DNA of 64,000 nt, taken from positions 2,944,001-3,008,000 of the forward strand of contig OY760937.1 of the NCBI GenBank assembly GCA_963664225.1, in the 5' to 3' direction. Of the stretch, positions 19,828 through 22,637 are shown piece after piece. This DNA comes from Verrucomicrobiia bacterium. Its GTDB lineage: Bacteria > Verrucomicrobiota > Verrucomicrobiia > Limisphaerales > UBA1319. The notes beneath the pieces are model-generated. The model was given only the letters and a program-made list of their open reading frames with translations, was not told the DNA's origin and searched no databases. The translations under genes were made by a program, and so were the position numbers. Each line of letters opens with the position of its first letter. The stretch's first letter is position 1.

Positions 19828-20538
19828 ATGAAGGGTAAAGATGAACATTCGGACAACAGCAAAGTATCCATGGCCCAGATTGAAGGATCGCTTGAATCAG
19901 CGGCCCGTTTCACGCGTGGAGGCGCTCCGGCAGCTCCAGACCATGATGCCACTGAGCGCGAGCGCTTTGCTCGAATTGAAGCGGAACGGCCACGACTCAT
20001 CCAATGGGCCAAAGCCAACGGCAAACTAGGCGGCACGATTCCTCCCGAAGATTCCAGAGGCGGTGAGCACCGCGTCTTTTATTGCAAAAAAACCGACCGG
20101 TATCTCAAGTCCACCATTCCCGAAAAACACAAAGGCTTCGGCATCGCACTGGGATCCCACACTCACGGGGCAACCCCTTCTGAGTATCTGGACCGGTTGG
20201 CCCTCCAAAATAAAATCTTCAACGACGATATCCGCCTTGAGTGGGTGGTAGTCAAAGAGGGCATGCCAGTTATCATTACTTCTCAACCTTTCATTTCAGG
20301 ATCACACCCGTCTCAAGAACACATTGACGAAATGATGATCGAGCACGGTTTTGAAAAAATTATTGCCGGGGCGTTTTACGATCGAGATGAGGGTTTATTG
20401 GTGTTTGACCTGTTTCCGAAAAATGCAAAAACGAATGCCGCAGGGGTGATCTGTCCATTCGATCCGGTTGTGCAACGCATTACGTCCGAATTTGCAGAAT
20501 TCTTGCGCGATTTTCCTGACCGTATTCATGACCGGTGA
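19828..20538 (+). CDS. Stand-alone polyvalent-protein-type kinase domain (Kinase-PolyVal-like)
   Basis: GGEHRVF, ATPSEYLDRL..QN.IF.DDI.LE, ITSQPFI.G, DLFPKN, FDP. Confidence 0.65.
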   Translation: MKGKDEHSDNSKVSMAQIEGSLESAARFTRGGAPAAPDHDATERERFARIEAERPRLIQWAKANGKLGGTIPPEDSRGGEHRVFYCKKTDRYLKSTIPEKHKGFGIALGSHTHGATPSEYLDRLALQNKIFNDDIRLEWVVVKEGMPVIITSQPFISGSHPSQEHIDEMMIEHGFEKIIAGAFYDRDEGLLVFDLFPKNAKTNAAGVICPFDPVVQRITSEFAEFLRDFPDRIHDR

Positions 20539-20741
20539 TGTAAGAGGTCGCAGATACTGCCTGTGTTATTTCGTCCTTGGCCAATCACGACCTCCCAATG
20601 CGGATTCTTCCGCGTGGAAAAGTCATTTGTTCCGCACCCCTGATACGGTTTCCACAGGTAATCATCCGTTGGCGAGGAGAGCCCCGGGAAGCTCCCCGCA
20701 GCTAACGGTGAATAACTGTGCCGCCGCCAAAAAATCGAGCG

Positions 20742-20770
20742 GTGAAAAACTTTTGTCGCCGGAGTATAAT
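20742..20770 (+). promoter_or_regulatory. Sigma70-like promoter for the bridge RNA/transposase
   Basis: GTGAAA (20742-47), 17-nt spacer, TATAAT (20765-70). Confidence 0.5.
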
Positions 20771-20775
20771 GCTTC

Positions 20776-20940
20776 TGGCGGCATCGCCCCGGATGGATCA
20801 CGGTCATACACCCCTTGTCTTAAGAAGACTGAGGAGAGTTTACCGGCCCGTCCGACGGCGCCTGTCAAAAAGTCTGAGAGAACTATTGCCCGCGAGGCTT
20901 CCTGTATCAGGTTGACTGACGACAGCGCTCCGATGCCCCG
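20776..20940 (+). ncRNA. IS110 bridge RNA (predicted)
   Basis: Basal stem GGCATCG/CGATGCC closes two stem/internal-loop/hairpin arms carrying target and donor guides. Confidence 0.7.
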
Positions 20941-20953
20941 TAACGGAGGATCT

Positions 20954-22204
20954 ATGAAATCATGGTTGGAGATATCCTGTTTTGCCGGATTGGATTGGGC
21001 CCGGGATCATCACGATGTGGTCATCGTCGATCGAGAGGGCAAGATCGTGGAACAGTTCCGCTTCGAGCATTCCCAGGAGGGCTGGGAGCAATGGCGGAAA
21101 AAGACGGCGCCCTTCGCCCCTTTGGCGGTGGCCATTGAGACGAGCTTCGGCACGGCTGTGGACCAGCTCCTGAGGGGGGAGGCAACGGTCTATCCGGTCA
21201 ATCCCAAGAGCGCCCAGCGGTATCGGGATCGCAAGGTGCCCAGCGGCAGCAAGACCGATTTTCTGGATGCCTGGTCTCTGGCCGATGCCTTGCGGATCGA
21301 CGGGCACGGTTGGAAAGCGCTGGTCCCAACGGACGCGCTGACCAGCCAGTTGCAGATGCTCTGCCGGGATGAGGTTCATCTCATCGGTCAGCGCACGCTG
21401 TTCGTAAATCAATTGCAACAAGCTCTCTTGGAATACTATCCGGCGGCCCTGGAGGCCTTTGAGGATTGGACCATGGCCTCGGCGTGGGATTTCATCATTG
21501 AGTTTCCAACGCCTCGTGCGCTGGTCAAAGCCGGCAAGCGACGGTGGGAAAAGTTCCTGCACGTTCATAAGCTCTGGCGGCCGGAAACCGCTGAAAAACG
21601 GATGGGCATTTTTGCACGGGCCGATCAGTTTTGCGGCTCGGCGGCCCTGACGGCGGCCAAGGGCACCCTGGCGGTGAGCCTGGCCAAAATGTTACGCACG
21701 TTGCAGCAGCAACTGGATGTTTATCACGCGCAAATCCAGGCCTTGTTTGCACAGCACCCCGACCATGACTTGTTCGGTTCGCTGCCCGGAGCGGGCTCGT
21801 TTTTGGCTCCACGGCTGCTGGGAGAAATCGGCGGCGGGTCGGGCCGGTTTGAAAGCGCACAGCATCTGCAGGGCATTGCGGGCACGGCTCCTGTGAGTTA
21901 TCAATCGGGACAAATCGACAAGGTCCGCATCCGCCACCACTGCGACAAGTTCCTCCGCCATGCCGTGCATCTGTGGAGCGATTGCAGTCGCAAGAAATGT
22001 CTTTGGGCACAGGTTTACTACCAGAAAAAACGGGAAGAGGGCAAAAGCCACGCTTGCGCTTTGCGGTGTCTGGGCCAGCGGTGGCTCAAAATCATCTGGA
22101 AAATGCTCCAAACCCACGCGCCCTACGATCCGGAAATACATGCCAAAAACCAGCAGCTGCATGGTTCGTGGGTGCTGAGTCTGCAGACCAAAACCGCCAG
22201 GTAA
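20954..22204 (+). CDS. IS110-family (DEDD) recombinase/transposase
   Basis: GGAGGA RBS; GLDWA, AIET, KTDFLDA (DEDD), SLPGAG, YQSG catalytic Ser region. Confidence 0.93.
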   Translation: MKSWLEISCFAGLDWARDHHDVVIVDREGKIVEQFRFEHSQEGWEQWRKKTAPFAPLAVAIETSFGTAVDQLLRGEATVYPVNPKSAQRYRDRKVPSGSKTDFLDAWSLADALRIDGHGWKALVPTDALTSQLQMLCRDEVHLIGQRTLFVNQLQQALLEYYPAALEAFEDWTMASAWDFIIEFPTPRALVKAGKRRWEKFLHVHKLWRPETAEKRMGIFARADQFCGSAALTAAKGTLAVSLAKMLRTLQQQLDVYHAQIQALFAQHPDHDLFGSLPGAGSFLAPRLLGEIGGGSGRFESAQHLQGIAGTAPVSYQSGQIDKVRIRHHCDKFLRHAVHLWSDCSRKKCLWAQVYYQKKREEGKSHACALRCLGQRWLKIIWKMLQTHAPYDPEIHAKNQQLHGSWVLSLQTKTAR

Positions 22205-22265
22205 TTTTGGTGAATAACTTTTATGAAAAACCATTTTACAACACAGAGAACAACTCGCCTTGCCC

Positions 22266-22637
22266 CTATTGGACGGCGTGGCGGTGTCGAACGCTTCTGA
22301 CCAATTCGAAAATGAGGCTCACGATGCCCACAACCCAGCCAATGGGATAAGGAAGGATCAGCATTCCCCACCACATGGAGTGTTTGCTCGCCCCGCCAAG
22401 TCCCCCCCACGCGCTCAGTCCGAAAAGCGCGCCGACCCCGACCGCGATCATCAGGAAAATGCACAACCATTGAACGCGCAGGTCGCGTCCGCTGTTGCCC
22501 AGGTAAATGCCGAGAGCCACCAGGCCGCTGCCGGGAAGGATGACGAGAGAGCCCTCCAGCGGATCGACGGCGCCAATCAACATGGCGATACCACCGACAA
22601 TGACGAGAATTCGGGACCAGAGCTTGCGTGTATTCAT
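22266..22637 (-). CDS. Small multi-pass membrane protein
   Basis: About four hydrophobic segments. Confidence 0.65.
   Translation of the reverse strand: MNTRKLWSRILVIVGGIAMLIGAVDPLEGSLVILPGSGLVALGIYLGNSGRDLRVQWLCIFLMIAVGVGALFGLSAWGGLGGASKHSMWWGMLILPYPIGWVVGIVSLIFELVRSVRHRHAVQ

Follow-up and report, generated by a model that had tools for sequence, protein, structure and literature searches.

A stretch of 64,000 nucleotides from the genome of a Verrucomicrobiia bacterium (contig OY760937.1, positions 2,944,001 to 3,008,000; the window, whose coordinates are used below) carries an insertion sequence of the IS110 family, which occupies window positions 20642-22253 plus one CT core and is 1,614 bp long. 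Very probably it is a bridge-RNA insertion sequence of the IS110 group, in which a two-loop RNA encoded in the left end reads both the target and the joined ends of the element. An initial annotation of this DNA had proposed such an RNA, and the proposal is supported by the comparison of copies, by the covariation of the RNA fold and by the way in which the guides follow the flanks in relatives. The bridge-RNA element is genuine but ordinary for its known family. In this clade the left end is also under a sequence constraint on its reading frame, the purpose of which may lie in translation across the joined ends.

Four full copies of the element, that of the window included, are present in the genome with 99-100% identity. 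The other three copies differ from the window copy by 0, 1 and 9 substitutions, which points to recent activity, and a tblastn search of this genome with the recombinase returned these four copies only. Their shared sequence runs from GATACGG (20642) to AGAGAACAA-CT (22245-22255), and the flanks are unrelated. The junctions of the window copy read cgCACCC-CT[IS]CT-CGCCTT, and those of the others atCACCC-CT[IS]CT-CACCCC, tgAACCC-CT[IS]CT-CTCTTG and ggAACCC-CT[IS]CT-CTCCTC. CT is the sole dinucleotide common to both junctions in the four copies, and there are neither terminal inverted repeats nor a target duplication beyond CT. From the comparison of both ends it can be deduced that the 1,614-bp element has a left end of 312 nt and a right end of 49 nt. 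Contigs from four public sequencing runs have loose ends, among those listed, at 20635-39 and 22256-60. An orthologous empty site was not found: the left flank (20050-20639) was compared with 20 further genomes from its genus, family or order and matched none of them.

The recombinase matched PF01548 over positions 1-155 of 155 (E 4e-30) and PF02371 (E 6.5e-14). Among PDB sequences the ISCro4 and IS621 transposases were matched with E ~2e-6; the KTDxxDA motif aligned with that of IS621, and the Ser-Gly loop (S318-G319) with those of both transposases (S241-G242 in IS621). D14, E62, D102, D105 and S318 are the counterparts of the IS621 catalytic residues D11/E60/D102/D105/S241 (PMC11208158). 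Across 14 relatives there is no variation at D14, E62, D102, D105 or G319, and the conservation of S318 is 90% or more. The features of the element are collected in Table 1.

Table 1. Features of the IS110-group element in the window; the guides and handshakes are putative.
Feature	Position	Strand	Remarks
Left target half-site CACCC + core CT	20635..20639 + 20640..20641	+	(C/A)ACCC-CT directly 5' of GATACGG in four copies
Left end, 312 nt	20642..20953	+	Copies identical from 20642; annotated as non-coding; recombinase frame stop-free
Leader hairpin of the left end, long and imperfect	20653..20720	+	Outer 12 bp CACAGGTAATCA 20653-64 / TGAATAACTGTG 20709-20; pair counts
Sigma-70-like promoter, GTGAAA-17-TATAAT	20742..20770	+	10/12 positions; TATAAT 20765-70; predicted start near 20777
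Bridge RNA core	20780..20937	+	Closing stem GGCATCG 20780-86 / CGATGCC 20931-37 around target and donor arms; fold and covariation
Target-binding arm	20790..20854	+	Stems CGGATGG 20790-96 / CCGTCCG 20848-54 (one G-T) and CGGT 20801-04 / ACCG 20842-45; inner hairpin GTCTT-aag-AAGAC 20817-29; fold and covariation
Left target guide (LTG), CACCC+CU	20809..20815	+	Same as left-flank top strand + core; 7/7 in two copies, 6/7 in two
Right target guide (RTG), GAGGAGAG	20831..20838	+	Complement of CT-CTCCTC, 8/8 in copy L004
Target-loop handshake guide, UU	20839..20840	+	Complement of AA, the final two bases of the right end
Donor-binding arm	20862..20925	+	Stems CTGTC 20862-66 / GACAG 20921-25 and AGTC 20871-74 / GACT 20914-17; inner hairpin 20888-98 (GCC 20888-90 / GGC 20896-98); helices 90-96% paired, compensatory changes
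Left donor guide (LDG), AGAGAACUAUU	20877..20887	+	Against AGAGAACAA-CT 22245-55: 9 identical, 1 wobble-compatible, 1 mismatch
Right donor guide (RDG), GUAUCAG	20904..20910	+	Complementary to core + left end, CT-GATAC, 7/7
Donor-loop handshake guide, G	20911..20911	+	Complementary to the left-flank base adjoining the core
Recombinase gene, 416 aa	20954..22204	+	Ribosome-binding site GGAGG 20945-49; Pfam and PDB sequence matches
Right end, 49 nt	22205..22253	+	In-frame ATG 22223-25; donor block AGAGAAC 22245-51; boundary from copies and contig ends
Core CT + right target half-site CGCCTT	22254..22255 + 22256..22261	+	Copies diverge after CT-C

The minimum free energy (MFE) fold of 20772-20950 reproduced the outer stem and both arms of the RNA, and all the helices drawn by the initial annotation, together with its TATAAT box, are present where it had put them. 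When the 28 family members were folded singly, the MFE structures of 23 had the 5' segment paired with sequence beyond the donor arm. We scored covariation on a MAFFT alignment of these 28 sequences, for a structure that we had specified ourselves: 80.7% of the cells were paired, against 67.0% in shuffled alignments (none of 500 reached the observed value) and 32-50% when the pairing partners were slid, and 28 of the 36 pairs of the bridge RNA showed compensatory change. Among the relatives the target loops are hypervariable and the donor loop is conserved, while the stems are kept. The promoter in front of the closing stem is the only promoter-like site in 20500-22400, with a score that none of 200 shuffles reached.

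The bridge RNA would be ~160 nt long (~20777-20940), with the closing stem holding two arms, each with a large internal loop. The target loop would read the insertion site: its 5' strand, CACCC-CU, is the same as the left flank and core, an identity (CACCCCT, 20809-15, with 20635-41) that had been recognized from the start, and its 3' strand, GAGGAG-AG, would complement the core and the right flank. Together, the two strands define a preferred site of about (C/A)ACCC-CT-CTCCTC. The RTG pairs perfectly with the right junction of L004, and in the other three copies CTC and 2-3 further positions are matched. In the donor loop, which would read the joined ends of the element, AGAGAAC.. would match the last bases of the right end and GUAUC-AG would complement CT-GATAC; in DNA letters, the LDG AGAGAACTATT (20877-87) matches the right end AGAGAACAACT. 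The one or two nucleotides 3' of each 'AG' would form the handshake, i.e., they would pair with the partner DNA after strand exchange. By analogy with IS621, the 416-aa DEDD/Ser recombinase presumably relies on this RNA for recombination at the CT core between the target and the excised circle, whose junction would read AGAGAACAA-CT-GATACGG. The transcription of the bridge RNA, the ends of this RNA, its assembly into a ribonucleoprotein, circle formation and the activity of the element are what we infer from these features.

The ideal predicted 13-mer target is absent from the genome, and seven sites lie within one mismatch of it. One of these seven, an unoccupied paralogue of two of the insertion sites near 797216, reads AACCC-CT-CTCCTC with a single CT and a perfect RTG match, and serves as a natural empty site.

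Relatives were taken from a scan of species-representative genomes, mostly metagenome-assembled genomes labelled Verrucomicrobiota or Planctomycetota, which gave 36 loci; in 33 of them the best segment is 53-70% identical. A bridge-RNA-like region was recognized upstream of the gene in 27 of the 36 loci (53-68% protein identity), and not at L018, L023, L025, L026, L032, L038, L039, L041 and L042, which are truncated, degenerate or 30-34% identical. The ends of the relatives were located by their conserved terminal motifs, and the comparison of loops with flanks allowed one base of shift. The LTG agreed with its own left flank at 7.76 of 9 positions on average, against 3.86 for non-cognate flanks (21 loci, 416 non-cognate pairs), and the RTG agreed with its right flank at 6.65 of 9, against 4.36 (23 loci, 502 pairs); for both guides, the observed mean was reached by none of 10,000 permutations. 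The right end of the relatives reads ...A(G/T)AGAAC-NN-CT, and it is the flank after that CT which the RTG matches. The 7-nt donor block is the same in guide and right end in every case (AGAGAAC in 15 loci, ATAGAAC in 7 and AGAGGGC in 1), and the RDG variant GUACCAG co-occurs with CTGGTAC in L019; such co-changes of the donor guides represent few independent events. The handshakes follow their partner DNA as well. In the target loop, Watson-Crick pairing is found at the first position in 22 of 23 loci and at both in 14, and the guide alternates between UU, AU and AA in step with AA, AT and TT in the right end. In the donor loop, 17 of 22 loci are Watson-Crick and 2 more are wobbles, a match that 0/10,000 permutations reach, and the second position pairs in only 1 of 22. 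The guides of the relatives thus match their DNA far beyond chance.

Several observations weigh against this account of the RNA. The right flank of the window copy itself agrees with the RTG at no more than 6 of 8 positions, with one further wobble, and the LTG match of L035 is poor (3/9). The agreement of donor-guide positions 1-7 in 23 of 23 loci is partly circular, because the same 7-mers were used to locate the ends. LDG pairing next to the core is weak, with matches at positions 8-11 in 12, 8, 14 and 2 of 23 loci and at none of these positions in one subclade. The fold is not unusually stable relative to shuffled sequence (z = -1.37), and in a 175-nt context the window's own MFE fold lacks the closing stem. 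The weakest helices of the MAFFT alignment, partly because of misalignment, are the closing stem, with only 54% of its cells paired, and the lower target stem, with 70%. A search of 20400-22400 against Rfam at E up to 10 gave no relevant match, only a chance match to a snoRNA, and Rfam 15 may hold no bridge-RNA family. The circle junction and the empty-site joint were not seen in the contigs of runs X1, X2, X4 and X5 over 20300-22600, although contigs cannot show absence. None of the 23 listed sequencing runs is on record as RNA, and transcription and RNA ends are predictions from the DNA.

The initial annotation had closed the element at GGTGAATAA-CT (22219, with an end coordinate of 22225), so that the RTG would pair with CT-TTTAT by wobbles and GAGAGAACT (20876-84) would be the left donor guide, with its CT on the core. 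TGAATAACT-CT does occur at 22211-19 and partly resembles 20876-84, and the same 11-mer lies at 20708-18. This site is internal: the four copies are identical for 36 bases beyond it and diverge only after 22255-56, no loose contig end falls there among those listed, which lie at 22256-60, and in the relatives, too, the right end is the A(G/T)AGAAC-NN-CT motif with the RTG matching the flank behind it. We regard an end at 22219 as hardly conceivable. The internal 11-mer GGTGAATAACT (20708 and 22209) had been taken for the right end, and this explains the mis-register of the left donor guide and the wrong target, circle junction (GGTGAATAA-CT-GATACGG) and empty site (GCACCC-CT-TTTATG). With the correct right end, matches that looked partial become good. 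The wobble-only pairing ascribed to GAGGAGAG (20831-38) was an artefact of the wrong end, since this sequence is the exact complement of the right junction of L004, and GAGAGAACT is present but, as a left donor guide, out of register by three bases. The guides had been said to define the ends of the element, which holds for the left end and fails for the right. Similarly, in the predicted target, about CACCC-CT-(C/T)T(C/T), the left part CACCC-CT agrees with the LTG and the flank, whereas the right side had to be discarded. The flanks of the other copies place the right boundary elsewhere than claimed, and the targets track the loop sequences well. The complementarity of CTGTATCAG (20902-10) with CTGATACGG (20640-48), with one wobble, was borne out, but bases 20902-03 are not part of the guide: the first extra position is Watson-Crick in 0 of 23 loci.

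A structured left end could also be a mere leader or regulatory 5' untranslated region that occludes, for example, the ribosome-binding site, the protein choosing the target and the matches of loops with flanks being coincidental. The fold indeed adjoins GGAGG and the start codon, the MFE structure pairs 20772-76 with GGAGG (20945-49), and guide function in this element is read from sequence. A leader of this kind would not be expected to have target loops that are hypervariable among conserved stems, loops that change with the flanks in 21-23 independent loci (0/10,000 permutations), or handshakes that change with the partner DNA, and we consider it very improbable. A further possibility is that the bridge RNA is longer than proposed here, starting near the left terminus from a promoter formed at the circle junction (TTTACA of the right end, 17 nt, TACGGT of the left end), with the hairpin 20653-20720 as its 5' stem-loop. 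The conservation of this leader hairpin with compensatory changes, the presence in most relatives of a TTG(A/C)AA-like hexamer whose distance from the right end is constant, and the fact that the site of the internal promoter is the best match in only 9 of 28 family members are in line with such an RNA, which would parallel the 5' stem-loop of the IS621 bridge RNA (PMC11208158). The internal promoter of the window is nevertheless strong (10/12) and lies directly before the closing stem, while the junction hexamers match at only 8 of 12 positions and are inseparable from the conservation of the donor site. An RNA of the greater length is therefore somewhat unlikely, and we keep the shorter bridge RNA, beginning close to the closing stem, as the working model.

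The leader hairpin lies between the left terminus and the internal promoter. For the first 105 nt of the left end RNAalifold gave no consensus structure, owing to misalignment of the variable middle, and pairs were then counted for a structure that we specified: in 21 sequences the 12 outer pairs were 86.5% paired, against 30-43% when slid, and six pairs were compensated. The TGAATAACT motif forms the 3' arm of this hairpin and recurs in the right end (22211-19), as a variant within the left end at 20743-51, and in inverted orientation close to the terminus at 20656-64. The hairpin or the motif may bind a protein, serve as a large 5' stem-loop of the RNA or belong to the -35 region. In the MFE fold, CUUCU (20772-20776), just 5' of the closing stem, pairs with the ribosome-binding site of the recombinase, GGAGG (20945-20949). 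On a transcript that contains the bridge RNA, this predicted pairing may occlude the translation start.

The left end of the window element, including the template of the bridge RNA, has no stop codon in the frame of the recombinase gene. In the 330 nt upstream of the start codon of 18 loci there are 6 in-frame stops, as compared to 104 and 39 in the other two frames. When only stops not shared by half of the sequences are counted, the bridge-RNA region has 2 against 20 and 54, and the first 105 nt of the left end have 1 against 7 and 11. The frame is also tied to the terminus: although left ends of 12 different lengths occur, the left end opens on a first codon position in 21 of 23 loci, and it is free of in-frame stops in 20 of the 23. 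At the opposite end, 21 of 23 loci have a start codon that is in frame across the CT and lies 33-48 nt from the terminus (ATG in 19, only TTG in 2). Right-end ATGs number 20 in that frame and 1 in the other two together, and the last 48 nt of the right end contain 3 stops in the junction frame, against 26 and 19 in the others. L037 and L040, which have no right-end start, are both among the three loci with in-frame stops in the left end. Variability shows no codon-position periodicity in the bridge-RNA region (entropy 1.10, 1.06 and 1.12), i.e., there is no sign of selection on a peptide sequence, and the constraint bears on the frame and on stops.

A left end that keeps the frame and avoids stops, together with a start codon in the right end, suggests that a longer recombinase open reading frame (ORF) could be assembled only at the circle junction. 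In this tentative reading, to which we give somewhat less than an even chance, the ends of the element would in effect split the recombinase gene: the right-end ATG, the CT and the left end (99-138 codons in relatives) would form one continuous ORF with the gene in the circle or in a tandem copy, and circle formation would switch on translation through the bridge-RNA region. In the joined ends of the window element, the ATG at 22223-25, with 33 nt of right end and core, the 312 nt of the left end and the gene amount to 531 codons, against 416. Ribosomes would thus cross the joined ends, which is how we read a constraint seen in the DNA. Translation of the circle would either give a long isoform of the recombinase or simply drive ribosomes across the bridge RNA, and the junction frame would tie the output of recombinase, or the folding of the bridge RNA, to the transposition intermediate. 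IS110-family open frames (matches over the cut-off) are 285-345 aa elsewhere in this genome and 115-443 aa in the 60 genomes sampled from the phylum, against 500-747 aa at the four copies. Public gene calls of 485-568 aa make up 58 of the 120 best matches in this clade, and junction translation, if true, would explain why such calls are often ~100 residues too long. None of 19 long proteins inspected begins with the right-end peptide of the joined form; all begin in differing left flanks. These 19 speak for another explanation: stops may be avoided in the left end because ribosomes enter it from upstream host genes, or because translation starts at an in-frame GTG at 20708, which lies inside a conserved GTGAATAAC motif, and not for the sake of a junction ORF. 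Read-in from arbitrary host genes does not require a frame fixed to the left terminus in 21 of 23 loci and 12 lengths, nor the depletion of non-conserved in-frame stops from the first 105 nt of the left end, nor an in-frame ATG in the right end of 19 of 23 loci when the other two frames have 1 ATG in all. We therefore think read-in or the internal GTG unlikely, and less probable than the junction ORF. The tnp frame in the circular form of IS4321/IS5075 may have been discussed by Partridge and Hall in 2003. In the literature searched no description of an ORF spanning the junction or the left end was found for IS110 elements, and the accessible parts of PMC11187229 and PMC5001619 are silent on it.

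A hairpin-bearing repeat has copies L003 and L004, as well as one unoccupied site, at its 5' edge, and the other two copies, that of the window included, lie outside it. The repeat belongs to a dispersed family with 28 further blastn matches in the genome, in which a hairpin CTCTCCCCGYTCGTGCC...GGGGCGAGAG follows a CCCCTCTC-like edge; members are found on G000:C1 at ~797216, 445694, 755891, 3235939, 4897522 and 5572142, and as a cluster at 3529538-3531094. In a member near G000:C1 1823921, GCCCCT-GATACG stands in place of the usual target edge, which corresponds to a left junction with only ~7 nt of left end; it may be a footprint or have arisen by chance. Three partial matches to the element, L005 1501-1658, L006 1501-1589 (minus strand) and L007 1501-1539, are truncated solo left ends with 80-87% identity that begin at CT-GATA(C/G)GG. 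They had been considered as sister elements with a recombinase of their own, an idea that was dropped because tblastn gave the four full copies only and no recombinase ORF follows any of them; they may be relics of deletions or of abortive left-end recombination. About 300 nt downstream of the solo left-end remnant in L007 there is a long tandem array with a 7-nt AAGAGCC-like unit (~1790-1990). Contigs of runs X4 and X5 follow the left end and bridge RNA to 20952/20953 and continue in unrelated sequence from the recombinase start codon, which suggests either relatives with the same left end and a divergent gene or a branching of the assembly. The same genome has ten further PF01548 (IS110-type DEDD) genes of other subfamilies (e.g., 771347, 1738672, 1762239 and 3172571), which tblastn with this recombinase missed and whose open frames are of ordinary length (285-345 aa).

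The element adds to the known bridge-RNA systems a well-delimited and, to judge from its four near-identical copies, apparently active orthologue very distant from IS621, with a predicted target of ~13 nt. Its naturally long RTG and closed three-way RNA layout, and up to 27 relatives with paired guides and flanks, provide material for comparing or engineering bridge recombinases, and the bridge RNA itself is no surprise. The part that specialists would not expect is the constraint on the reading frame of the left end, which is specific to this clade and for which no description was found in the literature searched. Translation across the circle junction, if true, would give the IS110 transposition cycle a new level of control, in which protein output or RNA folding is coupled to the excised intermediate. 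Nothing on IS110 and bridge RNA in Verrucomicrobia was found in the literature searched.

Tobes and Pareja, in 2006, reportedly dealt with IS110 elements in repetitive extragenic palindromes. ISPpu10 and other IS110 elements insert into such palindromes (10.64898/2026.03.19.712850), and L003, L004 and the unoccupied site resemble them in lying at the edge of a hairpin repeat, unlike the window copy and one other, which are not in that repeat. In ISEc21, a seekRNA IS110-type element (Siddiquee et al. 2024, PMC11187229), circle formation and transposition depend on an upstream non-coding region, supplied in cis or in trans, the abutted ends create a promoter in the circle, and, as here, there is no target duplication; ISEc21 belongs to a different clade and is likened by description only. 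The IS1111 group shares the recombinase family and the principle of a guide RNA, but it carries the RNA in a long right end and has subterminal inverted repeats of 7-17 bp (PMC11208160), whereas in the present element the left end carries the RNA and the right end measures 49 nt.

The closest model is IS621 of Escherichia coli (Durrant et al. 2024, PMC11208160; Hiraizumi et al. 2024, PMC11208158), for which PMC13626964 and 10.64898/2026.08.31.748434 were also used. The element has every defining feature of the IS110 group that can be read from sequence, and its layout agrees with the IS621 model. In that model each loop pairs through its 5' strand with 8-9 nt of the bottom strand and through its 3' strand with 4-7 nt of the top strand; all four pairings take in the core, and some orthologues have longer RTGs (PMC11208160). 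Both elements have a DEDD RuvC-like domain, a Tnp domain with Ser-Gly and a CT core, and both encode the RNA ahead of the gene, within a long left end, with the first loop for the target and the second for the donor. In both, the 5' strand of a loop equals the top strand of the left half and the core, the 3' strand complements the core and the right half, the handshakes lie 3' of the core complement, and the donor loop is far more conserved than the target loop. The protein is nevertheless very distant from that of IS621 (30 bits, E 2.4e-6, aligned mainly over the Tnp domain) and has 416 aa against 326 aa, and the left end measures 312 nt against 191 nt (PMC11208160). The closing stem encloses both arms here, whereas in IS621 the arms are strung after a 5' stem-loop. 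The present element further differs in its 8-nt RTG, in an LDG anchored by a 7-nt block two bases off the core, in a donor handshake of one nucleotide, in a strong promoter-like site inside the left end, and in a left end that is stop-free in the recombinase frame.

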